Source of the DNA: a virus | Taxonomy: Duplodnaviria > Caudoviricetes | Strand: one strand, 5' to 3' | Virus record (IMG/VR): IMGVR_UViG_3300028293_000008 | Coordinates: 1 to 49,793 of that record | DNA: 49,793 bases | Shown here: positions 493 to 49,729 of the stretch, one piece after another | Numbering within the stretch: the first letter of the stretch is position 1 | Layout: each line of letters starts with the position of its first letter | The notes under the pieces: model-generated | Seen by the model: only the letters and a program-made list of their open reading frames with translations | Database searches by the model: none | Told to the model about the DNA's origin: nothing | Position numbers and translations under genes: made by a program

Positions 493-705
493 ATGATTGG
501 ACTGCTGATCTGCCTCATCATCGCGCTCATCATCGCGGCGGCTGTGATGGGAGTTGTGCGCGCGCTGCTCGCGCTACCTGCGTGGGCGGGATTTGCGCCG
601 TATGCCGGCGTGATCTACGCGCTGATCGTGCTGCTGATGGTGCTCATCGTCATCAGCTACTGTTTCGGCGGCGTGCCTGGTCGCGGCGACCTTCGCTTGC
701 ACTAA
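493..705 (+). CDS. small two-TM membrane protein (possible holin-like)
   Basis: 70 aa with two long hydrophobic stretches; GGAGG SD upstream. Confidence 0.55.
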   Translation: MIGLLICLIIALIIAAAVMGVVRALLALPAWAGFAPYAGVIYALIVLLMVLIVISYCFGGVPGRGDLRLH

Positions 706-1044
706 AGCATTACAAATCGCATCGATGTGGATCCCCACATAGCCGCCGAGTTCCGCGAGCGTGGCCTCGCCCATATGGACGGCCAGACATAAGCGGCGAA
801 GTTCCGCGCGCATCGTGTCTAGGTCTGTCGCAGGCATTTCAAAGCGTTCCATACCACCGCTCACGTGGCCAACACGTGACCGCACGCTCGCGAAGTGGCA
901 GCAGGTAGAACCGAATCACATACCACTTGCAGATGAGGAAGAATCCGAACCCGATCACTTCATCGGTGCCAATGCGTCGGGCCTTACAGATGAATCGGAT
1001 CGTGCCGAACCGAACCCGATACCACGGAAACACGGGCGGCATGG

Positions 1045-4662: not shown

Positions 4663-4884
4663 TCATTGCGAGCCGCCGCACGCGACGATGAGTTCCTTGG
4701 TGACGACGTTGACGACGGCCGCGCGCGTCACGATGGCCTGCGCGCGCGCCCGGCGCAGAATCCAGCGGCAATGGTCGACGTTGACGCGTGGCCCGCCGCG
4801 GACCTGCCCGCACGTGCGCGCGACGTCGAGATCGAGCAAGGCCTCGCACACCGTCGCGACCGCCGTCCACTGCGCGCGCGTCAC
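4663..4884 (-). CDS. hypothetical protein
   Basis: GTG start overlapping the stop of the HNH gene. Confidence 0.4.
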   Translation of the reverse strand: MTRAQWTAVATVCEALLDLDVARTCGQVRGGPRVNVDHCRWILRRARAQAIVTRAAVVNVVTKELIVACGGSQ

Positions 4885-5321
4885 GGCCTCGCGTCCATCC
4901 ACTGCCAGAAGTCCATCAGACGCAATGCCCGCTGTTGGGTCGCCTCGCGTCGTCGTCGATTGTGACGGCGCACCCAGGCGCGATACCCGCCGAGCCATCG
5001 CGGATGTGTCGGTCCGCGCCACGTCCGCGCCGGCGTGATGTGGTGCCCCTTCTGCAGCATGTCGTGAATGTTGTCGCGCTGCGTGCCGAGGAATAAGTGA
5101 TCAGGACGACAACACGGCGGCACGTCGCACCGATGCAGGACGAACATGCCAGGCGGAATCTCGCCGAACGTCAGGATCCACGCCACGCGATGCGCGCGCT
5201 GATATTTCCCGGCGTAACTCAGTTGTCCATAACCGCCGCGTCCAGTGCTTCCCGTCCAGAGCCAGCATCCGTCACCGCCCTGCACGCGACGCCAGAAATT
5301 TTCAGGCCTCGTGATCCTCAC
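4881..5321 (-). CDS. HNH homing endonuclease
   Basis: CWLWTG..GYGQ..RAHRVAW..GEIPPGMFVLHRCDVPPCCRPDHLFLGTQRDN classic HNH motif. Confidence 0.9.
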   Translation of the reverse strand: MRITRPENFWRRVQGGDGCWLWTGSTGRGGYGQLSYAGKYQRAHRVAWILTFGEIPPGMFVLHRCDVPPCCRPDHLFLGTQRDNIHDMLQKGHHITPARTWRGPTHPRWLGGYRAWVRRHNRRRREATQQRALRLMDFWQWMDARP

Positions 5322-30128: not shown

Positions 30129-30902
30129 GTGCCGACAGCCCTGCGCACCATCGTCAACCGGACCCGCACGACGATCCTCGCGCCGCTCGTCCAGACCGGC
30201 GCTGTCGCCCCTGATACGTTCTGGACGGACGCCGAATTTCTCGCGCACCTGGTCGCCGGGTGCACCGATCTGTGGCGGGCCATCCTCGATCTGCAGCAGG
30301 ATCATTTCGTCCGCATCAATACGACGCTCGTTCTGCCCGCTGGTGCCACGGCACTAGCCGGCGTCCCGCCCGATTGCTTTCGCATCCTGCATCTGCGCCC
30401 GCGCGACCGGACCGATAGCACCGGCCGGGCGATCAGCTTTCGGCGCGCGCGGCTCACCTCGATCGACTTCACCAACGCGCTCGACGCCGCGGCGCTCGAC
30501 GTCTCGAGCGGCGGGCGGATCTTCTACGCGCTGATCAATGCGGGCTCACCCGTCGATACGCCCGAGATTCACGTCGCGCCGTCGATCACCAGCGACCTGC
30601 CGATCCGCCTGGTCTACGTGCCGACCTTGCCGGCGCTGACGCTCGACAGCGTCAACCCGATCCCCGGCGAAAGCGACAACGCGCTGATGGCCTGGTGCGC
30701 GGCCTATGCGTTGGGGAAACAGAATCCAGACGGCACGCTGACGCCCGATCCGACCTGGCTCGGCGTCTACAGCACCGAGAAGGAAAGCATCAAGATCGTC
30801 GTCGAGCCGCGCGATACCTCGTCGCCGTCGATCATCCGCGGCGCGCTCGACGAGATCACCGGGCCGGGCCTGTCGGGCGACGGCACCGGATGGGACTGGT
30901 GA
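30129..30902 (+). CDS. putative head-tail adaptor
   Basis: FWTDAEFL..L...DLW, IRLVYVP..P.L pattern; position ahead of the tail genes. Confidence 0.55.
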   Translation: MPTALRTIVNRTRTTILAPLVQTGAVAPDTFWTDAEFLAHLVAGCTDLWRAILDLQQDHFVRINTTLVLPAGATALAGVPPDCFRILHLRPRDRTDSTGRAISFRRARLTSIDFTNALDAAALDVSSGGRIFYALINAGSPVDTPEIHVAPSITSDLPIRLVYVPTLPALTLDSVNPIPGESDNALMAWCAAYALGKQNPDGTLTPDPTWLGVYSTEKESIKIVVEPRDTSSPSIIRGALDEITGPGLSGDGTGWDW

Positions 30903-31176: not shown

Positions 31177-31854
31177 ATGTCCACGGCGACGCTGCAGGCG
31201 ATCTGCGTGGGGTTCACCAATTACGGCGGCACCGGGCAGACGCTCGTCGAGATCAATGAAAGCGTCGGTAACGGAAGTCTCGCGCCGACCGGCACCTTCG
31301 ATAGCGATCTCGCCGCGATCGATGGCGTGTCCGTCTCGCTGCCGAGTGGCGGCGGCTCGCTCGACTTCGCCTGGCACAACGTCGGCACGGTCCCCGTCGA
31401 TGCGACGGTCGTCTCGGTCAACGCGACCGTCACCGTCAAGTCGGCGGGCGGGACGATCGCGCAATTGGACTTCAACGTCCTCGGCGATACCGGGTTCGGA
31501 CAGGTGCCGTTCGTCGGCGCCGTCGGCAGCAGCGTCGCGGCCTTCACATCCTTTTCCACCGGCGCGCTGACGACGAATCCGGCGACGTCGGCGGCGTGGA
31601 CGCCCGCCGATCTCTTTCCGGCGACACCGGCCGGCCCCTCGATCAATGGCTTTTTCGAAGTTGGCTGCGACCTCGGCACCGGGCCGGGACACATCGACTG
31701 CGTCACCTTGCTCGTCACCTTCACCGCCGGAAGCTGGTGGTTCAATCCGACCTCGAATCACTACGTGTTCGCGGCCGAGTCGCCCGGCGACCCGTTCGTC
31801 GCCAGTAGTGCGCCGGCGCCGACGATCACCGGCGTGGATCCGCGCTTCACATGA
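31177..31854 (+). CDS. putative tail or receptor-binding protein
   Basis: beta-rich; ends with an IPT first strand APTITGVDP. Confidence 0.55.
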   Translation: MSTATLQAICVGFTNYGGTGQTLVEINESVGNGSLAPTGTFDSDLAAIDGVSVSLPSGGGSLDFAWHNVGTVPVDATVVSVNATVTVKSAGGTIAQLDFNVLGDTGFGQVPFVGAVGSSVAAFTSFSTGALTTNPATSAAWTPADLFPATPAGPSINGFFEVGCDLGTGPGHIDCVTLLVTFTAGSWWFNPTSNHYVFAAESPGDPFVASSAPAPTITGVDPRFT

Positions 31855-34172
31855 CCGTCACGCTCACGGGCTCCGGGTTCGGCGACGGCGCGACCGTCAC
31901 CTTTGGCGGCAGCGCGGCGACCAACGTCGTCGTCGTCGATCAGACGACGATCACGTGCACGCCGCCGGCGCACGCCGATGGGTTCGCGACGGTCGTCGTC
32001 ACCAATCCCGACGGCACGACTGGCACGCTGTCGAACGTCTTCGTCTATACGACGCTGTCGGTCAGTCCGACACACGGGCCGATCGCCGGCGGCACGGCGC
32101 TGACGCTGAACGTCTCGGACGGCGGCGCCGGCGTCGAATGGTTTCCGGGCAGCGGCACGTTTCAGTTTCACGTCTTCATCAATAACGTCGTCGGCACGAC
32201 GGTCGATCTCACCGATCCCGATCTGATCGTCAATGTCGGCACCGGCGACTTCGTCGTCGGCACGCGCGTCAACGCGCATTCGATGACGTGCGTCACGCCG
32301 GTCGAGCCGTGCGGCCCGACCGATGTGATCGTCGTCTCGACGAACCTGTCGGCGCCCAACGTCCTGTTCTACCTGCCGGGGGGCTACACCTATCAGCTCG
32401 CGGCGCCGGACGCGACGAGCATCACGCCGACGAGCGGGCCGGCGGTTGGCGGGACGCACGTCGGCATTGCGGGCACGTTCGCGTGCACGCCCTGCAGTGG
32501 CGGCGGCACGATGGCCGCGACCGTCGGCGGCACGCCGCTGACCTCGGTTGGGTGCTCATCGAGTTTCGTCACCGGCATCACCGGCGCGCACGCGGCCGGC
32601 GCCGTCGACGTCATCGTCACCGGGCCGGACGGGCAGACCGATACGCTCGTCGCCGCCTACACCTACGTCGATGCGCCGGTCGTCACCGCCATCACGCCGG
32701 ACGAAGGACCGTATACCGGCGGGCAGTCGGTGACGATCACCGGCCTGCACTTTGTGAATGGCGCATCGGTCCTCATCGGCGATCTACCGGCGACCGGCGT
32801 CACCGTCGTCAACGCGACGACGATCACCGCGACGACGCCGGCGCATGTGGCGGATGTCGTCGATGTCAGCGTGACGAATCCGGACGGGCAGCGCGGCACG
32901 CTCGAGCGCGGCTATGCCTATTTCGGCTGGTGGGTCTTCGATCCGACGGACGGCGAGCCGTTCACCTTCGATCCGTTCGATGACACGCTGCCGGCCTTTG
33001 ATTGGCCAATCCCGCCGCCGTTCGATCCCGCGAGCTTCACCTGGTGGACGTATGCGCCGACCGCACCGGGGCCAGGGTGGAGCACGGCGAGCCTCACGCC
33101 GCCGTCGACCAACGGCTGGTGGCTGTCGATCGCCGCGTTCGGCGGATCGGTGCTCGTCGTCGCCGACAGTCGGCCGAAGAATCCGCGGACGTGGACGCAG
33201 TTCGCCGGGTTCGCGACTGGGTCGGCCGCCATGCTCGGCGGCTCACCCGGGATCGCCGCGGTCTTCCACAACCGGCTGATCTACGCCTCAAGCGATTACG
33301 TCGGCGGGACGGACTACCCGCCGATCCGGATCTTCGATGGCAGTTTCGATCGCGAGCTGGTGCGCCTGCCGCCGACTGCGGCGAATGCCGTGCCGAAAGC
33401 GGTCGTGTCGCTGCTCGTCGCCAACGGGACGATCTACGTCGCGACCTACGACACGGGCTCATCGTCAGCCGACTGGACGGGCCGCGTCTTCTCGCTCGAG
33501 CTGACGACCGCGACGCTCACGCCGATCGGCGCCGTCTTCCCGACCGGCCATCTGCCGTATGCGCTCGCCTGGCACAACGGCATGCTGTGGTGCGGGACGC
33601 ATCGGCAGTCGTCGGCCGCGGCCGGGAAGATCTACCGCATCCGGCCTGACCTGCCCGATGCGACCTGGACCGAGGATGTCGATCTCGCCTCGGTCAGCAT
33701 GGCCGGCGTCGCGGCGCTGCGATCGTTTCAGGGGCTGCTGTTCGCGGGCACGACCGCCGCGGCCGGCACGTTCGCGAAGATCATCAAGCGTGCGACCGAT
33801 GGCACCTGGAGCACGGCCGACACCGGCAGCGGCGGCACGGCGACGGCGAACAACGGCTTTCTGTCGCTCACCGAATTCAAGGGATCGATTTACGCCGGCT
33901 ATTGGAACAATGACGCGACGAAGATCGCGAAGATCCGCAAGAGCGTGGACGGCACGACGTGGTCGACAGCCTACACCGGGGCGAGTGGCACGCTGCGGCC
34001 GTTCATCATCCTCACCGTCGACGACGGCGAGATCTTCGCGATCGGGGGCGGGCTCAGCCTGTCGGCCGCCATCGTGCGCAGCGGCGACGGCACGACCTGG
34101 ACCGATCTGACCGCCGAGCTGCCGGACACGACGGAAACCGCGGTACCGGCCGCCGGCGTCCTGGTGTTCTGA
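31851..34172 (+). CDS. tail protein with tandem IPT/TIG domains and a C-terminal beta-propeller-like region
   Basis: multiple P..GP..GG..VTI.G IPT repeats; S.DG.TW Asp-box motifs. Confidence 0.75.
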   Translation: MTVTLTGSGFGDGATVTFGGSAATNVVVVDQTTITCTPPAHADGFATVVVTNPDGTTGTLSNVFVYTTLSVSPTHGPIAGGTALTLNVSDGGAGVEWFPGSGTFQFHVFINNVVGTTVDLTDPDLIVNVGTGDFVVGTRVNAHSMTCVTPVEPCGPTDVIVVSTNLSAPNVLFYLPGGYTYQLAAPDATSITPTSGPAVGGTHVGIAGTFACTPCSGGGTMAATVGGTPLTSVGCSSSFVTGITGAHAAGAVDVIVTGPDGQTDTLVAAYTYVDAPVVTAITPDEGPYTGGQSVTITGLHFVNGASVLIGDLPATGVTVVNATTITATTPAHVADVVDVSVTNPDGQRGTLERGYAYFGWWVFDPTDGEPFTFDPFDDTLPAFDWPIPPPFDPASFTWWTYAPTAPGPGWSTASLTPPSTNGWWLSIAAFGGSVLVVADSRPKNPRTWTQFAGFATGSAAMLGGSPGIAAVFHNRLIYASSDYVGGTDYPPIRIFDGSFDRELVRLPPTAANAVPKAVVSLLVANGTIYVATYDTGSSSADWTGRVFSLELTTATLTPIGAVFPTGHLPYALAWHNGMLWCGTHRQSSAAAGKIYRIRPDLPDATWTEDVDLASVSMAGVAALRSFQGLLFAGTTAAAGTFAKIIKRATDGTWSTADTGSGGTATANNGFLSLTEFKGSIYAGYWNNDATKIAKIRKSVDGTTWSTAYTGASGTLRPFIILTVDDGEIFAIGGGLSLSAAIVRSGDGTTWTDLTAELPDTTETAVPAAGVLVF

Positions 34173-34173
34173 C

Positions 34174-35802
34174 ATGGCCTTCACCATCATCCAGGCCGGC
34201 ACGACGCTGCAGTTCGTCGACGAGGCGGGCGCGGTGACGTCGCTCACCCTACCGACGAACATCACGCTGCGGTCGGACGTGCCGCCGCGGTGGTCGGTGT
34301 ATGGCCGCTTCGTCATCCTGGTCAACACGCCGAGTCGGCCGCTGACGATCGATGCGACCGGCACCGTGCGCCCGCTGACGCCCCTGGCGCCGCGGCTCGC
34401 GCCCGTCCTGAGCGGCGTCGCCGGCGGCACGCTCAGCGGCACGTTCCGCGTGCGGAACACGAACATCATCCGCGACGACACCGGCACCATCCTCGCCGAG
34501 AGCGATTACAGTCCGTTTTCGAATGCGGTGACGATCACCAATCAGGCGCTGCAGGCGGCGAACATCGACGTCTCACCCGATGCGGCGACGAGCGCGCGGC
34601 GCCTCTACCGCACGACGACGAACGGCGCGGTCTATCTGCAGTGGATCGATCTCGACGGCAACGTCCTGCGCACCGTGCAGGATGACCTGAGCGATCAAGG
34701 GCTCGGGCTCACCGCCGGCCCGACGCTCGGCACGCCGCCGCGGCTGACGCACATTGCCGAATTCCGCGATCGGTTGTTCGGGGTCGGCGACGTCGACATC
34801 GACAGCGTCGCCTACACCGAGACGGGCCTGCCCTATGCGTGGAACCCGCTGAACACGCTCGTCGTGCCGCGCGTCGGCATGGACACCCGCGGCGTCACCG
34901 CGCTCGTCTCGAGGCGCGAGGCGCTCGGCGTCGGCCGCCTGAATCGGTTGTCGCAGATCGTCGGCACCGGTCAGCAGGACAGCGACGGGCAGAACGATCT
35001 GCGGCTCATCAAACTGAGCGATGAAACCGGATTCCTCTCGCAAGAGGCGACGGTCGTCTACCGCGATGTGGTCTATTTCCTGTGGCACGACGGCGTCTAT
35101 CAGTGGGACGACAACGGCCTGACGTGCCTGTCGGACGGCAGCGGCGGGCATAACCGTGTGCGCTCCTGGTTTGCGACCGATGATTATTTCGATCGGCGGA
35201 AGTTTCCGGTCGCCTTCGCCTCGATCGAGCCGACGCGCAACACCTATCGGCTGTTCCTCGACGATCCCGACGGCGTGCGGCACTATGTCGAATTCGATTT
35301 GATCGATCGCACCTGGTGGGGACCGCACCGTGTCGATGCGTTCACGCCGCGCAGCGCGTTCGTCCGCTCGACCGGCGATGACGTGCAGGCGCCGATGCTC
35401 GGCGCCGCGGACGGCGGCCTCTACGCCGAAACGACGCGCGCGGCTGACGTGCCGCTCAGTGGCGATCCGCGCGGCATCGCCTATGACGTCGACACCCGCG
35501 CCTTCATGGGCACATCGCCGGATCGCTTGCAGTATTTCGGCACCCTCTCGGTGCTCGGGAAGGCGCAGGCCGGCGGCACGCTGACGATCACGCCGCGTGT
35601 CGGCGGGCTCGACGCCGACGGCGGGCTCGCGCTCGCGCCGCAGGATCCGATCGCGCACGATCTCCGCAAAGGCCGCGAGCGCTTGCGGCGGCTCGGCAGC
35701 GGCGCGCTCGCGCAGTTGAACCTGACGCACGACGGGGTCGACGAACCGGTGTCGGTGCTCGCGATCGAGATCAGCGACGTGCACGAAGTGGGGCGCCGGT
35801 GA
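34174..35802 (+). CDS. tail nozzle or DNA-stabilisation protein (P22 gp10-like)
   Basis: RRLYRT, HIAEFRDRLF, VYFLWHDGVYQWD propeller motifs; podovirus gene order. Confidence 0.6.
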   Translation: MAFTIIQAGTTLQFVDEAGAVTSLTLPTNITLRSDVPPRWSVYGRFVILVNTPSRPLTIDATGTVRPLTPLAPRLAPVLSGVAGGTLSGTFRVRNTNIIRDDTGTILAESDYSPFSNAVTITNQALQAANIDVSPDAATSARRLYRTTTNGAVYLQWIDLDGNVLRTVQDDLSDQGLGLTAGPTLGTPPRLTHIAEFRDRLFGVGDVDIDSVAYTETGLPYAWNPLNTLVVPRVGMDTRGVTALVSRREALGVGRLNRLSQIVGTGQQDSDGQNDLRLIKLSDETGFLSQEATVVYRDVVYFLWHDGVYQWDDNGLTCLSDGSGGHNRVRSWFATDDYFDRRKFPVAFASIEPTRNTYRLFLDDPDGVRHYVEFDLIDRTWWGPHRVDAFTPRSAFVRSTGDDVQAPMLGAADGGLYAETTRAADVPLSGDPRGIAYDVDTRAFMGTSPDRLQYFGTLSVLGKAQAGGTLTITPRVGGLDADGGLALAPQDPIAHDLRKGRERLRRLGSGALAQLNLTHDGVDEPVSVLAIEISDVHEVGRR

Positions 35803-37058
35803 AGCCGCAACCGTATCGCGTCGCGTGGCCGCAGCAACCGGGCATCACGCCGGCGGCGAATAGCGCCCTGGGCCATCAGATGTCGAACATCGACGAGATG
35901 TTCGAAATCCTGTTCACCGAGCTGCGTAACCTGCGGCTCGGGATCGCGGGCGCCGAGGCGCACGCGCTCGTCGCCGGTCCCGTCGGCGCGACGGGCCGCG
36001 ACGGCTGCGATGGGCTCGACGGGTTCGGCTGGCCGGGGCCGCCAGGCGCCGTCGGCGCGCGCGGCCTCGCCGGCGTGCCAGGGCTCGACGGCCTCGACGG
36101 GCTCGACGGGATCGATGGGTTCCCCGGTCCGACGGGCGCGACCGGCGCGCGCGGGCTCGCCGGCATACCGGGGCTCGATGGGATCGACGGCGACGACGAC
36201 GCGGCGCGCGGGCCGGCCGGCTGGAACACCGACTCGACGGCTTTTACGGGGCGCCCGACGGCACCGACGGCCGCCGCCGGCACCAACACGACGCAGATCG
36301 CGACGACCGCCTTTGTGACGACGGCCGTGACGCCGGTCGTGCAGACGACGACGTCGACGGGCACGCAGAATGACTTCGCGCTGACGACTGGCGCGACGCT
36401 CCTGCGCTGCAATAATGCGTCACTGCTGACCATCACCGGGATGTCGGCCGGCGTCGATGGGCAGCGCGTGACGATCGAATCAGTCGGCGCCGGCCAGGTG
36501 AACTTCACGCATCAGGACACCGGCAGCAGCGCGGCGAATCGCCAGATCAACTTTGCGACGAGCGCAGCGACGCCGCTCGCGCCGGGCTCGGGCAACGCCG
36601 TCTATCAATACGACGGCACCACGCAGCGCTGGCGGCTCGTCACGCACAATCAGGGCGCGTGGATCAGTCAGGCCTACAGCGGCAGCGACTTCACCGCTGC
36701 GGGGTCGATGACGTGGACCGTCGACAGCGGCGACCTCTCGGTGTTCAAGTATTGGCTGAAGGACACGACGTTGCTCGTCTCGGTCAACATCGGCGTGTCG
36801 ACGCTCGGCGGGACCGCGTCCGCGCAAGTCAACATCAAGGTGCCGGGCGGGTTTTCCTTCGCGACGGGATCGTCGGGCCGCGCATTCGCCACCTATAACG
36901 AGTCGGCATCGGGCACCGCGCCAGGGTTCGGATATTGCGCGTTTAATCCTGCCGTCAGTGCCACCCTCTTGCGCCTGTTCAAGATCGATAGCGCGAATTT
37001 CGTCTTGGGGACCGACTCATTTTCATTGTTCACGACGATGCAGTGTGAAGTCGGCTAG
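35799..37058 (+). CDS. tail fibre with collagen-like repeats
   Basis: G-X-Y repeats (GPPGAVGARGLAGVPGLDG) and FTGRPTAPTAAAGTNTTQIATTAFV tail-fibre repeat. Confidence 0.8.
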   Translation: MKPQPYRVAWPQQPGITPAANSALGHQMSNIDEMFEILFTELRNLRLGIAGAEAHALVAGPVGATGRDGCDGLDGFGWPGPPGAVGARGLAGVPGLDGLDGLDGIDGFPGPTGATGARGLAGIPGLDGIDGDDDAARGPAGWNTDSTAFTGRPTAPTAAAGTNTTQIATTAFVTTAVTPVVQTTTSTGTQNDFALTTGATLLRCNNASLLTITGMSAGVDGQRVTIESVGAGQVNFTHQDTGSSAANRQINFATSAATPLAPGSGNAVYQYDGTTQRWRLVTHNQGAWISQAYSGSDFTAAGSMTWTVDSGDLSVFKYWLKDTTLLVSVNIGVSTLGGTASAQVNIKVPGGFSFATGSSGRAFATYNESASGTAPGFGYCAFNPAVSATLLRLFKIDSANFVLGTDSFSLFTTMQCEVG

Positions 37059-44712: not shown

Positions 44713-45095
44713 TAGGAATCACCAGCCTTTCGCGAAAGCGTGCCGGTGCCGCAGCAGCACCAGCAACTAACGGTTGTCTCTGCGGTCTTGCCCCAATCGC
44801 CGCCGAGGCGCGTCAGCACACCTGATCCGCCGCACTCGCCGCACGGCCGCGCCTGTGTCGACGCCGAGATCGCCGCCAGTCCCCGATCGCGCGCGCCGAA
44901 CACATCCGGATATGCGCGTCCGCGCTCATCGGTCAGCGCGAAATTGTGCGGCGGGTTCCAGGTGCTGAAGCCGTCGATCTTGATGTAGCCGTCATGCGGC
45001 CGGATCGCCGTCAGGCGATACCAGCCGCTGACCGCATGCACGGTGCAGAACACGTGCGAGCCGATCGCCAGGGCGCGCGTCTCAGCGGCGGTCAC
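44712..45095 (-). CDS. hypothetical protein with a C-terminal DnaJ-type Zn motif
   Basis: CGECGGSG...CWCCCGTG. Confidence 0.55.
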   Translation of the reverse strand: MTAAETRALAIGSHVFCTVHAVSGWYRLTAIRPHDGYIKIDGFSTWNPPHNFALTDERGRAYPDVFGARDRGLAAISASTQARPCGECGGSGVLTRLGGDWGKTAETTVSCWCCCGTGTLSRKAGDS

Positions 45096-45940
45096 TGCGA
45101 CACCGCCGTTGACTCGGCCGTCGTGACCGCCTCGAGAATGTCAGCCGTCGGATCCTCGAAAAAGGACACGACGCCGCGATACCACGATCCGCCGAGCCGC
45201 TCGAGCGCCGGCCGCCAGTGCGCCAGGTTGCCTGACACATTCCAGACCGGCCGCGGTTGCTTCCAGGCTTTCGCCGGCGTGGTCATCGTCGCCGTAATCG
45301 TCAGGCCGGCGCGCGCGAGCGGGCTCGCCGCCGCGGCATCGACGACCGCGGCGCCTGACGGTGTCGTCGCGGCGAGCAGTTCGGCCAGGCGTTTGCGCTC
45401 GCGCCTGATCGTGCCGCCGATGTTTTGCAGTTGATAGTCAGCGAACCCGACGCGCCCGCAAAAATCCGGCTCGAGCAGCTTCGCGGCGAGCGCCGGCGGC
45501 CACTGCAGCAGGGCGGCGAGCCGTGCGGCCTTCGTCGCCGCATCGATCCCGCGCTTGCGCACGATCAGATTGGCGAGCTTCATGTTGATGCGCTCAGCCT
45601 CGAGCGCGGCGATCTTCGCCTGCAGGCGGTCGATCGCGTCGACGTCGTCACGGTAGATCGCGCGCTCGGCCGCGCGTTCGATCGTGTCGGCGCGACTGGC
45701 CATCGCCGCGCCTTTCTGCTGATCCTCGAGCCCGCGGCGCATCGCCGCATCGGAGCGCTCGAGCACGCGCCGATGGCGCCGTTCGGAGTGATGGCCAACC
45801 AAAATTGGTTGGCCGAGAGGGATGTCTTTGATCAGGTTGTGCGCGCGCGCGAAATTGCCGGTGCTCCGCGCGGCGCGCTTTTCCGCCCATTCCCGCAACC
45901 GGCTGGCGCGCTCGAGGCGGCGCTCGCGATAGGTGCTCAT
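45092..45940 (-). CDS. DUF3560 domain protein
   Basis: MSTYRERRLERA...IPLGQPILVGHHSERRHRR signature. Confidence 0.85.
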   Translation of the reverse strand: MSTYRERRLERASRLREWAEKRAARSTGNFARAHNLIKDIPLGQPILVGHHSERRHRRVLERSDAAMRRGLEDQQKGAAMASRADTIERAAERAIYRDDVDAIDRLQAKIAALEAERINMKLANLIVRKRGIDAATKAARLAALLQWPPALAAKLLEPDFCGRVGFADYQLQNIGGTIRRERKRLAELLAATTPSGAAVVDAAAASPLARAGLTITATMTTPAKAWKQPRPVWNVSGNLAHWRPALERLGGSWYRGVVSFFEDPTADILEAVTTAESTAVSQ

Positions 45941-46245
45941 CGGACACCGCCGGCGGCCGGCTCGAGGCGGTCTTGCCCGTGGCGCGTATCGCAGACGAAC
46001 ACATAGCCGGTATCGGTCGCGCCGACGACCCATTCGCCATAGCCGTTCGGCTGATCCCATCCGAGGCGCGCGATTAATTGCTTCGCCGCCGCACGATGGT
46101 TCGCTTCGATCCCGAGCTGATCCTGGCATTCGACGATCAGGCGGCGTGTGGGTTCGCAAGGGCGCGCGGTTTCCATCACACGCGCACTGATCCGCGAACC
46201 TTTCAGATTGGTAGGGCCGATGAAACGGGTTTCGATCGCTAACAT
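45937..46245 (-). CDS. conserved early phage protein
   Basis: AIETRFIGPTNLKGSRISA..NHRAAAKQL..GYVFV; GGAGTGAATGCCAAATG leader. Confidence 0.75.
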   Translation of the reverse strand: MLAIETRFIGPTNLKGSRISARVMETARPCEPTRRLIVECQDQLGIEANHRAAAKQLIARLGWDQPNGYGEWVVGATDTGYVFVCDTRHGQDRLEPAAGGVR

Positions 46246-46296
46246 TTGGCATTCACTCCAGAACGGAGCAGCGTCATTGCTGCAGTTGAGACACTC

Positions 46297-46325
46297 ACTA
46301 TACTACTGACGGCCGATGATGTCAA
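46297..46325 (-). promoter_or_regulatory. sigma70 early promoter P3
   Basis: TTGACA-17 nt-TATAGT. Confidence 0.85.
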
Positions 46326-46484
46326 GACCCGCGCGCGATCCGATCGTTTACCAGCCGTCGCGCTGTGCGTCGTGCCAGTCCGCGTCAGCAATGGCCGCGC
46401 GCAAGGCCGAACGGCCGCCGGCGCACGATCGCGCGTTCGCGGCCGTCAGCCATTCGATCGCCCAGGCGGGCAGCTCGGCGCCGC

Positions 46485-46682
46485 TCACAAGGACCACGCG
46501 ATCGGTGCCGATGTTCTCCCGGCGATCGTTCGGCAGGTTTTCTCGAGCGCGGCCGTGCGCATCGGGCCGCGATGCAATCCCAAGGCAACCGGGCTCAGCG
46601 GCGCCGCAAACGCCGCCTCATATTTGTGCGCGGCCGTGACGATGTAATCGATCGTGTCGGTGGAAACAACGTATGCGCTCAT
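46485..46682 (-). CDS. short or possibly truncated early protein
   Basis: MSAYVVSTDTIDYIV N-terminus immediately downstream of P2; no SD. Confidence 0.4.
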   Translation of the reverse strand: MSAYVVSTDTIDYIVTAAHKYEAAFAAPLSPVALGLHRGPMRTAALEKTCRTIAGRTSAPIAWSL

Positions 46683-46707
46683 GGTCATTGCTGCAGTTGA
46701 GATACTC

Positions 46708-46736
46708 AATATACTACTGACGGCCTTTGATGTCAA
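46708..46736 (-). promoter_or_regulatory. sigma70 early promoter P2
   Basis: TTGACA-17 nt-TATATT; a 54-bp near-duplicate of P3. Confidence 0.85.
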
Positions 46737-47014
46737 GTGCCTACGCGCGCGATCCGATCCGATCCGGAATGTTTCATGCGAGCACGAGCAGCCTGATGTA
46801 ACGTGCCGGAAGATGGTCACAACGGTTCGGGAAGCGCCAGCAGTCGGCGCAGACACGCGTCCAATCGGCGCGGGACGTATCCTCTTCAAGCCAAGCCCAC
46901 GGCCAATAATTACGTAGCATCCAGATCCCCTCCGGAATGATCGGAAGTTGCCCGGTGAATCGCCGAACGAATGCGCGCGCAGTCGCTCGGCGCCAGCGAT
47001 CCTGTAAATTTCGC

Positions 47015-47069
47015 AGTGCGACGGTCGGCTCGAGCCGACCGTTTCGGCCTTCCGGCCTCGTCAGGCAAC
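47015..47069 (-). ncRNA. type I hammerhead ribozyme HH-A (stem I reduced to 3 bp)
   Basis: GUUGC CUGACGA GGCC-GGAA-GGCC GAA ACGGUCGGC-UCGA-GCCGACCGU C^GCACU. Confidence 0.75.
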
Positions 47070-47534
47070 CATTGCAAACCGCGATCGGGCGCGCGCGGAT
47101 TCACTGGCCGCAATGCTCTGCAGGATCCGCAACCGTAGGGCGCGACGCCTGACGACAGGGCTATACGGCGCCGTCGCACGGCGCCATCGATCCTGCAATG
47201 TGCGCAGCCGGCGGTAGAACTCCGGACGCGCGATCGTGAGCTGGCGTGCATCGTCGAAACACTCGGCCAGTAGCACGGCCGCGGCCGTGCGCGTGTCGGC
47301 ATGCGTGCAATCGGCGAAAAACGCCAGATCCGCATACGGCGCCGTCTTTTTGTAGTGCGCGAACAATTCGACATCGGACAGCGTCGACGTATCGACGTCG
47401 ATCGGCGCGGTCGGCTTCCGCGGCCGTTTCGGCGCCTTCAGGTGCGGCGCCAGCAGAGCGTAGGCGCGCGCGACATCGGACAGATCAACGCCAGGTAACG
47501 CGGACGCGAGCAGATCGATGATCGGATTAGACAT
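47061..47534 (-). CDS. early hypothetical protein (157 aa) ending in the HH-A core
   Basis: ATG at 47534 after the CAGGAGTGAATGCACA leader; ends VA-TGA. Confidence 0.75.
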   Translation of the reverse strand: MSNPIIDLLASALPGVDLSDVARAYALLAPHLKAPKRPRKPTAPIDVDTSTLSDVELFAHYKKTAPYADLAFFADCTHADTRTAAAVLLAECFDDARQLTIARPEFYRRLRTLQDRWRRATAPYSPVVRRRALRLRILQSIAASESARARSRFAMVA

Positions 47535-47570
47535 TGTGCATTCACTCCTGATTGAGCAGCGTTGACGAAT

Positions 47571-47625
47571 GTTGCGACGGTCGGCTCGAGCCGACCGTTT
47601 CGGCCTTCCGGCCTCGTCAGGCAAC
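47571..47625 (-). ncRNA. type I hammerhead ribozyme HH-B
   Basis: complete core CUGACGA/GAAA/GUC; stems I 5 bp, II 4 bp, III 9 bp; predicted cut 47576^47575. Confidence 0.92.
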
Positions 47626-48120
47626 CGCAGGCACGATCCCATCGGCGATCATCTGCCGTGCTTGATCGTCGGTGTAGCCTTGCGCCATGAATGTTTTCAT
47701 GGCGCGATACCACGCAAACCGTTTGAGCAGATCGGCGCGCATCCGTTCCGGCAGTGTCGCGACGAATGCGTGATCGTCGTCTTCATGCGTCCAGACGATC
47801 GACGCCAGGTGATGCAAGATCGCGTCTTCGGCCTCTTCGCGTGTCCCGCTCGAGCCGATGTAATAGTCGGTTTGCGAAAAGACATCACACCACGCGCGCC
47901 AGCCGAACGCATCCGGACTGACAATGTAAATGTGTCCGTTCCATCGGCGGATGATCGTGCCACGATCCAACCGTTCTAATGCTGCGGTCGTCTCACGTTC
48001 ACAGTTGACGATCGCGTCTGCAGCCGAAACGGCCGAAGAATAGGTGACTGGCCCGATCGTGGCGCAGTGCGATCGGACGCGTCCGCGGATGTCCTTCTGT
48101 TTAGTGATCGTCGGTTTCAT
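47617..48120 (-). CDS. early hypothetical protein (167 aa) ending in the HH-B core
   Basis: MKPTITKQ... after the leader; ends VA-TGA. Confidence 0.75.
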   Translation of the reverse strand: MKPTITKQKDIRGRVRSHCATIGPVTYSSAVSAADAIVNCERETTAALERLDRGTIIRRWNGHIYIVSPDAFGWRAWCDVFSQTDYYIGSSGTREEAEDAILHHLASIVWTHEDDDHAFVATLPERMRADLLKRFAWYRAMKTFMAQGYTDDQARQMIADGIVPAVA

Positions 48121-48157
48121 TGTGCATTCACTCCTGATTTGAGCAGCGTTGACGGAT

Positions 48158-48212
48158 GTTGCGACGGTCGGCTCGAGCCGACCGTTTCGGCCTTCCGGCC
48201 TCGTCAGGCAAC
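48158..48212 (-). ncRNA. type I hammerhead ribozyme HH-C
   Basis: same 55-nt motif as HH-B; predicted cut 48163^48162. Confidence 0.92.
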
Positions 48213-48214
48213 CG

Positions 48215-48481
48215 TTACGAGCAGCATCCGCAGCAAGGCGCATCCTCGCAACGTCCCCGCTTGTTTGTGTAGACTTCGGCGCCTGACGAAAAACGCGTAT
48301 AGCGTGAACCGTAGCGACGATCCGACCGCGGCGCCGCACTGACAAGGGCTCGAGCAGCATCCGCATTGTCGATCGGCACGTTCCAACCTTTTGCGCGACT
48401 ATCCCAACGTCCCCCAAGCGCTTTAATCTGCTCTTTAACGGGATAGGTATTGCCAGTGATCAAAACGGTGTCGGTTGCCAT
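48215..48481 (-). CDS. early protein, DUF5710-like with GRCEDAPCCGCC tail
   Basis: ITGNTYPVKEQIKALGGRWD..KGW and RGRCEDAPCCGCC. Confidence 0.75.
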   Translation of the reverse strand: MATDTVLITGNTYPVKEQIKALGGRWDSRAKGWNVPIDNADAARALVSAAPRSDRRYGSRYTRFSSGAEVYTNKRGRCEDAPCCGCCS

Positions 48482-48526
48482 TGTGCATTCACTCCTGATT
48501 GAGGCCTTCCGGCCTCGTCAGGCAAC
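48482..48526 (-). repeat. deleted (non-catalytic) hammerhead-leader copy HH-D
   Basis: GTTGCCTGACGAGGCCGGAAGGCC joined directly to TCAATCAGGAGTGAATGCACA; 46 nt including GAAA, stem III and the cleavage site are missing. Confidence 0.85.
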
Positions 48527-48917
48527 AGCACTCTAGTTTGTGGCGCCACGTCTGCAGACGTTTGCCAGCAAAACGCCAGTGCGATGCACTACGGGCCAGA
48601 TAATCAGAGGCCGTATGCGCCAGTGTCCGCAGATCTGTTTTGACCGTTTCGGGAAAGTGATCGCGGTAGACGCCTGAGATCAGAATGCCGTTTCCATCGC
48701 CGAACGCTGCAACCATGCGACCGATGGTTGCCAGGTGCATCTGATCTGTGACCCGGGCCAGCTCGAGGTATTCAAGCGATACCGCAATGTGCTGTGCTTT
48801 CGTCCAACCATCGAATTCTGGCAGACGATGAAACAATGCGGGGACGTCACAGACCGTTACCTGACGCGTCCACTTTGGGACGTTGAATCGACGATTGTAA
48901 GGATTGTCGGTTGCCAT
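48489..48917 (-). CDS. early hypothetical protein (142 aa)
   Basis: MATDNPYNRRF... after the leader; reads through the deleted repeat. Confidence 0.7.
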   Translation of the reverse strand: MATDNPYNRRFNVPKWTRQVTVCDVPALFHRLPEFDGWTKAQHIAVSLEYLELARVTDQMHLATIGRMVAAFGDGNGILISGVYRDHFPETVKTDLRTLAHTASDYLARSASHWRFAGKRLQTWRHKLECCCLTRPEGLNQE

Positions 48918-48954
48918 TTGTGCATTCACTCCTGATTGAGCAGCGTTGACGAAT

Positions 48955-49009
48955 GTTGCGACGGTCGGCTCGAGCCGACCGTTTCGGCCTTCCGGCCTCG
49001 TCAGGCAAC
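48955..49009 (-). ncRNA. type I hammerhead ribozyme HH-E
   Basis: same 55-nt motif as HH-B; predicted cut 48960^48959. Confidence 0.92.
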
Positions 49010-49447
49010 AATGACCGACAGCAAGGTCAGCTCTGAGATCTGCACATTGTCGGTGTCAATGTGCGTCCCATTCCCGTTGTAGTTGCGATCGTCTTCGGGA
49101 TAGTCCGCGGCAGCCGTAGCGTCGACAGCGATCCATTTTTCGAATTCATCGCAGAAGATCTCATACGCCGATTCAAACGATCGCGCCCTGATAACAGCAA
49201 ACGGCGGATCGAAACAATCGACGTTGAAACACGCGAACCATTGACCGTCGGTGTCATCAATGTAGTAATCGGTGGTCCGCTTGATTGAGTGTTTCGGGAA
49301 ACGCTCGAGCGTTTCTAGGTAGTCCTCTTTAACGCCAGGAGCCTGCAGAATGTAGCGATGATCGGACGAATTGCCGACGGAGAATACCAGCTCTCGAGCA
49401 GCGTTGATTGAGCCGACGTCGATCGTGGTGTCTGTGTTTTTGGCCAT
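49001..49447 (-). CDS. acidic early hypothetical protein (148 aa) ending in the HH-E core
   Basis: MAKNTDTT... after the leader; ends VA-TGA. Confidence 0.75.
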   Translation of the reverse strand: MAKNTDTTIDVGSINAARELVFSVGNSSDHRYILQAPGVKEDYLETLERFPKHSIKRTTDYYIDDTDGQWFACFNVDCFDPPFAVIRARSFESAYEIFCDEFEKWIAVDATAAADYPEDDRNYNGNGTHIDTDNVQISELTLLSVIVA

Positions 49448-49482
49448 TGTGCATTCACTCCTGAAAAGAGCAGCGTTGACGG
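49448..49482 (-). repeat. leader/RBS repeat without ribozyme
   Basis: CCGTCAACGCTGCTCTTTTCAGGAGTGAATGCACA-ATG. Confidence 0.8.
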
Positions 49483-49484
49483 TG

Positions 49485-49658
49485 CTAGTAACCGGCCTCT
49501 CGCATTTTGCGCATTGAATCGTAGAACGTTCCGACACGTTCTGCCTTGACGATCGATCCATCCTCGAGCTGGAAGTCAATGACGATCAATCCTTTCGCGG
49601 CAGTGACATCAACGCGAACGATCCGACCGTCAGGCAAACGATAGTCGTCAGTGACCAT
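49485..49658 (-). CDS. first early gene, 57 aa (not in the ORF track)
   Basis: translated by hand: MVTDDYRLPDGRIVRVDV...MREAGY; GAGGATATGCAC leader (alternative ATG at 49664). Confidence 0.6.
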   Translation of the reverse strand: MVTDDYRLPDGRIVRVDVTAAKGLIVIDFQLEDGSIVKAERVGTFYDSMRKMREAGY

Positions 49659-49700
49659 GTGCATATCCTCTGTGTGATGGTATCGGCATGTGATGGTCTA

Positions 49701-49729
49701 AAGATAGTCCAGACCGTCTGTGATGTCAA
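49701..49729 (-). promoter_or_regulatory. sigma70 early promoter P1 driving the ribozyme array
   Basis: TTGACA-17 nt-TATCTT; shares TTGACATCA with P2 and P3. Confidence 0.8.

Follow-up and report, generated by a model that had tools for sequence, protein, structure and literature searches.

The right end of a 49,793-nucleotide (nt) contig from a tailed soil phage (IMG/VR record IMGVR_UViG_3300028293_000008), analyzed here over its whole length and referred to as the window, carries an array of hammerhead ribozymes inside a minus-strand block of small, mostly orphan genes. Our analysis indicates that these elements are type I hammerhead cassettes and that three intact copies are likely to split a polycistronic transcript, which is probably early, into messenger RNAs (mRNAs) of one or two genes. 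An earlier interpretation made from the letters of the same DNA (hereafter the sequence-only reading) had proposed self-cutting of this kind into mono- or dicistronic pieces, and it remains the best explanation, with cleavage itself predicted from sequence. The term early probably applies, judging from a layout in which the small-gene block lies behind a consensus promoter.

Sequence reading together with a repeat search established that the 55-nt minus-strand element named in the sequence-only reading is letter-identical in copies 1 to 3 (Table 1). Its account of two damaged copies was equally accurate: copy 4 ends in GCACU instead of GCAAC, which reduces stem I to 3 base pairs (bp), and the truncated copy retains the 5' strand of stem I, CUGACGA, and stem II. 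Every sequence and structural feature of a type I hammerhead was found, as had been claimed. CUGACGA, GAAA, and GUC occur in 4/4 full copies, in which the core of the Perreault 2011 consensus (C3 U4 G5 A6 N7 G8 A9, G12 A13 A14 A15, U16 H17) is unchanged. The topology is that of type I, with stem I open and stems II and III loop-closed, and the covariance model R1, which comprises 60 of 77 eligible type I hammerheads from unrelated IMG/VR viral contigs, matches positions 1-55. In copies 1 to 3, stems I, II, and III measure 5-6, 4, and 10 bp, each pairing as far as the core. In isolation, the 55-mer adopts a three-stem hammerhead fold (minimum free energy, -28.4 kcal/mol; z -3.29); copy 4 does not, and the truncated copy cannot form three helices. 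The cut sites predicted earlier were right, with H17 at 48960, 48163, 47576, and 47020. On these grounds, the truncated copy is predicted to be inactive, and copy 4 is probably weak or inactive. All copies lie on the coding strand, one per gene junction, the four full ones at spacings of 797, 587, and 556 nt.

Table 1. Features of the hammerhead array and its surroundings (window positions; bits, scores from model R1; g1 to g6, genes of the array; SD, Shine-Dalgarno sequence; aa, amino acids)
Feature	Position	Strand	Description
Hammerhead copy 1	48955..49009	-	Type I, intact; predicted cut 48960^48959; stem I extends to 6 bp; 53.7 bits
Hammerhead copy 2	48158..48212	-	Intact; predicted cut 48163^48162; 52 bits
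Hammerhead copy 3	47571..47625	-	Intact; predicted cut 47576^47575; 52 bits
Hammerhead copy 4	47015..47069	-	Full core, stems II and III, 3-bp stem I, no U1.7; 41.1 bits
Truncated copy	48503..48526	-	46 nt gone: GAAA, stem III, cleavage site, stem I 3' strand, part of leader; 19.5 bits
92-nt cassette	48918..49009	-	Ribozyme and leader and SD through ATG; identical to 47534-47625
Leader half without ribozyme	49445..49482	-	CGCTGCTC...GGAGTGAATGC, SD, ATG; before g2
Sigma-70-type promoter-like site	49701..49729	-	TTGACA-17-TATCTT, 10/12 matches; heads gene cluster
Third promoter-like site	46243..46325	-	Carries leader motif; other gene behind it in sibling locus L207
Gene remnants fused to copy 4	46923..47016	-	g6-like piece, then 3' end of a gene whole in L207
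g1	49485..49664	-	59 aa; no Pfam or PHROG family
g2	49001..49447	-	148 aa; stop is core UGA of hammerhead 1
g3	48489..48917	-	142 aa; passes through truncated copy, stops at leader TGA
g4	48215..48481	-	88 aa; DUF5710-like N-terminus (below Pfam cut-off), Cys-rich C-terminus; TAA 2 nt before hammerhead 2
g5	47617..48120	-	167 aa; no family; stop is core UGA of hammerhead 3
g6	47061..47534	-	157 aa; no family; stop is core UGA of copy 4; 97% identical gene in L207

Copies 1 to 3 also combine a GGAA loop II (a GNRA loop ending in A) with an unpaired U1.7, seven bases after the cut. Among 105 distinct type I sequences from phages with a stem II of equal size, 79 combine U1.7 with an A at loop position 4, a sequence signature only, which is absent in copy 4. 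The contact between U1.7 and loop II is described, citing O'Rourke et al. (PMC11875169), as a rate-enhancing Hoogsteen contact. A 3-bp loop II pseudoknot drawn by eye was discarded, as nothing was supported beyond the U1.7 contact.

Chance is excluded as the origin of the copies. A descriptor search of 40 Markov-shuffled windows returned no match at a score of 12 or more, R1 gave E-values of 2e-14 to 2e-10 for the four full copies versus 0.13 for the best unrelated site, and the next-best site in the window after the five copies scored 13.5 bits. Covariation counts on alignment A3 were not relied on, being partly circular (the descriptor selects for pairing). The search with Rfam hammerhead models that the sequence-only reading had suggested came out negative: at gathering thresholds, clan CL00010 gave no match in the window, the best score being that of RF00008 (24.5 bits versus a threshold of 48.5, over the core and stem II only). 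The curated Rfam thresholds thus miss a common phage type I subclass. An assembly artifact is likewise excluded. Locus L201, from a second assembly, is 100% identical over 6342 nt and has the same four copies. Near-identical DNA is present in soil metagenomes, with 6/9 runs sharing at least half of the window's words, one of these perhaps being the run from which the window came; contig comparisons were drawn from 4/9 runs, X8 yielding short pieces only. Contigs of runs X2 and X3 end at the repeats, and in X3 the shared 53-nt unitig has a depth of 25.7 versus about 5.5-6.5 for its flanks (roughly four times). A 763-nt contig crosses the truncated copy without differences in both runs.

The ribozyme forms the first half of a 92-nt repeat, whose second half supplies the leader, SD, and ATG of the next gene. 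According to the sequence-only reading, each RNA piece would start about 40 nt before a ribosome-binding site (RBS); in fact, 41-42 nt separate the cut from the AUG, and 26-27 nt separate it from the SD. Ribozyme-free leaders stand both before g2 and at 46243-46280, behind the third promoter. As a motif, CGCTGCTC-N-GGAGTG(A/T)ATGC precedes six window genes (one truncated; sites at 49445-49482, 48918-48950, 48121-48153, 47534-47566, and 46243-46280), with three further copies in L207. A short hairpin (GCAGC, 6-nt loop, GCTGC) stands 5' of the leader in the promoter-led and L207 copies, and hairpin and motif could be a protein-binding or anti-SD element. Exact IMG/VR searches with the leader and with the stem III sequence gave no match each. 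The promoter reported earlier upstream of the array is present, and the cassettes contain no promoter-like site. Two 54-nt promoter repeats (46684-46737 and 46273-46326, minus strand; 93% identical; TTGACA-17-TATATT/TATAGT) form another type of repeated expression cassette within this block. Terminators are not in excess (4 found versus 6.1 expected), and the guanine-cytosine fraction of the array block is lower, at 0.52-0.65 versus 0.665.

Genes g2, g5, and g6 all end in Val-Ala-stop, the stop being the UGA of CUGA. An intact cassette has one frame with a stop before the cut and two frames open through it; g2, g5, g6, and the gene upstream of the cassette in L207 all enter in the stop-bearing frame, and g3 enters an open one. 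g3, the sole out-of-frame entrant, coincides with the deleted copy, whose catalytic half is gone, and the 46-nt deletion puts a leader TGA in frame with it. Past the last conserved motif, five of seven g3 homologues terminate earlier than g3 does, and the final residues of the closest one (P0002; 81%) are Val-Ala, the cassette signature. Because a cut upstream of the g3 stop would yield a non-stop mRNA, loss of that ribozyme may have been favored. The pairing of a read-through gene with the only deleted ribozyme provides indirect evidence for cutting in vivo. Searches for related loci with g5 and with the g3 alignment found none.

The sequence-only reading had also suggested looking for the motif in related phages, and L207, a 2029-nt sibling locus 97% identical over g6 and its flanks, retains the core and pairing while loop II and stem III vary. 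It holds an identical cassette behind a different gene, which also ends on the core UGA, and a ribozyme after g6 with a full stem I, U1.7, and a 6-nt loop II, followed by another leader and gene. In a third copy (681-740, minus strand; 46.8 bits by R1), stem III differs and an additional U separates A9 from stem II. Copy 4 is intact at the same place in L207; in the window it is joined, after three stem I bases, to a g6-like scrap and then to the tail of a gene present in full in L207 (85% over 40 nt; 96% over 54 nt; tblastn, 100% over 17 aa). The intact counterpart and the fused remnants indicate that copy 4 is a rearrangement scar that lost its right side, and on the same evidence we rejected the idea of a deliberately weak ribozyme. 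Copy 4 could be drawn with a longer stem I containing an internal loop, but the probability of this fold is at most 0.04. A third g6 variant in run X9 (38 differences over 518 nt) ends within the ribozyme on either side; X9 record 23 has L207-like coordinates, may be the same data, and was not counted as independent. The genes flanked by the same cassette differ between the window and L207. Taken together, these sequences suggest that the region is likely undergoing reshuffling at its repeats, which would double as recombination joints. A chimeric gene after the second promoter (46337-46688, minus strand) joins a short N-terminal piece to the 3' half of a cassette-borne gene of L207 (94% over 206 nt).

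The core-plus-stem-II pattern was found at no fewer than 120 viral loci in IMG/VR. Among the matches listed, 116/120 contain a full three-stem hammerhead, which marks the element class as common in phages, and 18/120 contain two or three hammerheads, 80 of those 120 having wide flanks. Identical copies are rare elsewhere (2/74 multi-hammerhead locus strands). We further surveyed open reading frames (ORFs) at 276 non-redundant type I sites from 465 loci, with the window-related L201, L205, L206, and L207 left out; the ORF calls are mechanical, and related phages may be counted repeatedly. An upstream ORF of at least 40 codons is missing at 69/276 sites and present at 207, where it stops before the ribozyme (90), in the 5' strand (65), on the core UGA (41), or between core and cut (6), with only 5 crossing the cut. 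ORFs of at least 50 codons reach 59/276 sites, with a frame split of 44:8:7 in favor of the UGA frame (binomial p 1.1e-10 against 1/3). A recount with stricter flanks gave 73/208 entering stem I and 5 crossing the cut. Overlap of the stop with the ribozyme is therefore common and read-through rare. Past the cut, an SD-led start follows at a median of 31 nt (158/276 sites).

Hammerheads are present in 8/80 loci with g4 relatives, and in L125 and L138 a type I hammerhead of different sequence lies directly 3' of the g4 homologue. These two loci, with L124 and L126, belong to a type I subclass adjoining g4-family genes, with a 4-5-bp stem I and a GGCA in loop II complementary to a UGCC downstream of the cut, a probable pseudoknot. 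In L202 (5378-6327, minus strand), a promoter-like site is followed by small genes interspersed with three related type I hammerheads that have a 6-bp stem I in common; one of the three has the core UGA as a stop. Identical copies occur at just one further type I locus of the set, L211, which has three hammerheads about 200 nt apart, at least two of them identical.

In the processing that we propose, host RNA polymerase would start near 49694, and each ribozyme would fold on emerging and cut co-transcriptionally after GUC. The resulting pieces would measure about 735 nt (g1 and g2), 797 nt (g3 and g4), and 587 nt (g5), with a further 556 nt if copy 4 works; were copy 4 inactive, the g6 RNA would run on. 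Each upstream piece would retain its stop codon and end in two hairpins (stems II and III) with a cyclic phosphate, and each downstream piece would begin with a 5'-OH and the standard leader. The likely benefit would be separate stability and translation for each cargo gene. The shared DNA repeats would also serve as recombination joints for cargo-gene swaps, and a gene that comes to read through a cut site would favor loss of its ribozyme.

Several observations weigh against this proposal. The hammerhead fold probability of copies 1 and 3 peaks at 0.2-0.6 with 5 nt of downstream sequence and drops to 0.02 or less from 15 nt on, because the leader CGUCA can pair with the core; that of copy 2 is at most 0.03 with 30-60 nt of upstream sequence. 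These calculations concern secondary structure and ignore the core and tertiary contacts. With a ribosome sitting on the core UGA, the ribozyme would be unable to fold, no Rfam family attains its gathering score in the window, and damage to 2/5 copies implies that the cut is not needed at every junction. The energy required to open the RBS changes after the cut from 8.7 to 8.1, 4.8 to 6.0, and 6.9 to 7.2 kcal/mol; with shifts of about 1 kcal/mol in both directions, cleavage-gated RBS opening was rejected. Moreover, the direction of any effect of a 5'-OH on stability depends on the host. 5'-dependent RNase E cleavage is described as acting poorly on such ends, which E. coli seems to leave unphosphorylated (PMC4191395), whereas glmS products are reported to be degraded after cleavage (PMC6765202).

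An unlikely alternative is that the cassette is kept mainly as a DNA recombination joint and portable RBS, in the manner of the repeated PeSL cassettes of T4-type phages, with the ribozyme riding along and cutting little in vivo. The gene exchanges seen in L207 (a different gene before the identical cassette and other genes after g6 and after the third promoter), the chimeric remnants of two L207 genes in the window, and the ribozyme-free leaders at 49445-49482 and 46243-46280 all fit this account, as do the two broken copies out of five and the rarity of identical copies elsewhere, which points to recent duplication or homogenization. Shared sequence would suffice for a joint, however, yet the diverged L207 copies preserve the core, pairing, and U1.7, and genes avoid crossing the cut. 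The evidence for shuffling comes from one sibling fragment of 2029 nt, and both roles can coexist. It also seems improbable that translation gates cleavage, such that the ribozyme is unfolded by ribosomes that stop at its core UGA and cutting takes place only without upstream translation. The upstream stop does lie in the core in 3/4 full-core copies, the survey frames favor the UGA frame, and the active fold is predicted to be transient, but the identical copy 2 follows g4 with its own TAA outside the core, and the core UGA is used at only 41/276 sites. Loss of read-through genes together with tight packing would account for the frame bias equally well, and CGUCA is also found in the ribozyme-free leader and is absent from two L207 copies.

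Re-closure of the excised units into circular mRNAs, by self-ligation or by host RtcB as in retrozymes, is very improbable. Tandem identical type I copies would give monomers with a 5'-OH, a cyclic phosphate, and complementary ends, and retrozyme circles arise in a like manner (PMC7761336). Stem I has only 5 bp (-4.5 kcal/mol), however, with end re-pairing probabilities of 0, 0.0004, and 0.05; circular or spliced products of such arrays were sought and none found, as reported in Perreault 2011 (PMC3088659), and the 73 ORFs scanned against Pfam include no RNA ligase or reverse transcriptase. With identical copies, the two ends of a gene unit would rebuild a whole hammerhead, and there is a very slim chance that a circular protein-coding mRNA with RBS, gene, and a stop in the core results; if true, this would be a DNA phage with nuclease-resistant circular early messages made from exchangeable cassettes.

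Elsewhere in the contig, PHROGs matches include the terminase large subunit, portal, major head protein, and an internal virion protein. The virion region (31851-37058, plus strand) encodes IPT/TIG-domain and collagen-repeat proteins, and an SU10 adaptor-like gene (30129-30902) suggests a short-tailed virion. A DUF3560 protein gene (45092-45937, minus strand; E 1.6e-31) lies in the operon behind the third promoter, and a free-standing HNH endonuclease gene is located at 4881-5321 (minus strand). A search of a genome collection identified three loci, in metagenome-assembled genomes of three different groups, and these identify no host; a search of a phage record collection gave one chance match and nothing else.

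In phage T7, the host protein RNase III cuts the polycistronic early mRNA between genes, producing 5'-phosphate ends. The window array resembles this system in that one early polycistronic transcript would be cut between genes, whereas a hammerhead needs no protein and leaves a 5'-OH and a 2',3'-cyclic phosphate; our literature search found no paper linking T7 RNase III processing to ribozymes. Retrozymes likewise contain tandem type I hammerheads that release unit-length monomers, but they are described as eukaryotic non-coding retroelements with circular intermediates (PMC7761336), whereas the window units differ from one another and encode proteins, their ends are predicted to re-pair weakly, and no reverse transcriptase occurs among the 73 ORFs. 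The PeSL cassettes are, similarly, repeated intergenic expression cassettes in a hypervariable block with gene gain, loss, and replacement (Arbiol 2010, PMC2839356; PMC4122927). As described there, PeSL consists of a promoter and a stem-loop, whereas the window cassette consists of a ribozyme and a translation leader, lacks an internal promoter-like site, and is alike as a repeat only.

The array also resembles other phage hammerheads. Those from IMG/VR and metagenomes share the core, the 4-bp stem II with a tetraloop, the 5-6-bp stem I, and U1.7, and there are often several per operon (L002, L071, L202) with a stop codon at the 5' edge, but copies within one phage usually differ. The sequence-only reading had implied that a self-processing phage operon is new; the layout and the processing proposal are already found in Perreault et al. 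2011 (PMC3088659), who described clustered prophage hammerheads and proposed that they process mRNAs into single genes or short operons. Three of their arrays were cleaved in vitro and one in E. coli, and 14/18 consensus hammerheads were active (PMC3088659). The purpose of phage hammerhead arrays is described as still open (PMC6765202). A literature search by title, with subscription journals mostly outside it, returned no title that dealt with hammerhead cores containing stop codons or with circular phage mRNAs derived from hammerhead arrays. As in the clusters of Perreault et al., several consensus hammerheads lie here close together on the coding strand, flanking single genes or short blocks that are variable. 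The window copies differ from those clusters, as far as the latter are described, in being letter-identical and fused to a repeated leader, SD, and ATG, and the array has three core-UGA stops and two scar copies, with cleavage here being predicted. What is particular, then, is the identity of the copies, the fusion with a leader, and the naturally damaged copies, the concept itself being already known. Our analysis adds the core UGA as the stop of three upstream genes, the out-of-frame gene on the deleted copy, and the gene swaps at the cassette in the sibling. The sequence-only reading had overlooked the stop codon within the core, the embedding of the ribozyme in a repeated leader cassette, and the origin of copy 4 as a scar. 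Set beside the known clusters, the array offers a tidy test case: three identical ribozymes in different contexts, two with a stop in the core and one without, together with two naturally damaged copies and a sibling in which a damaged copy is intact.

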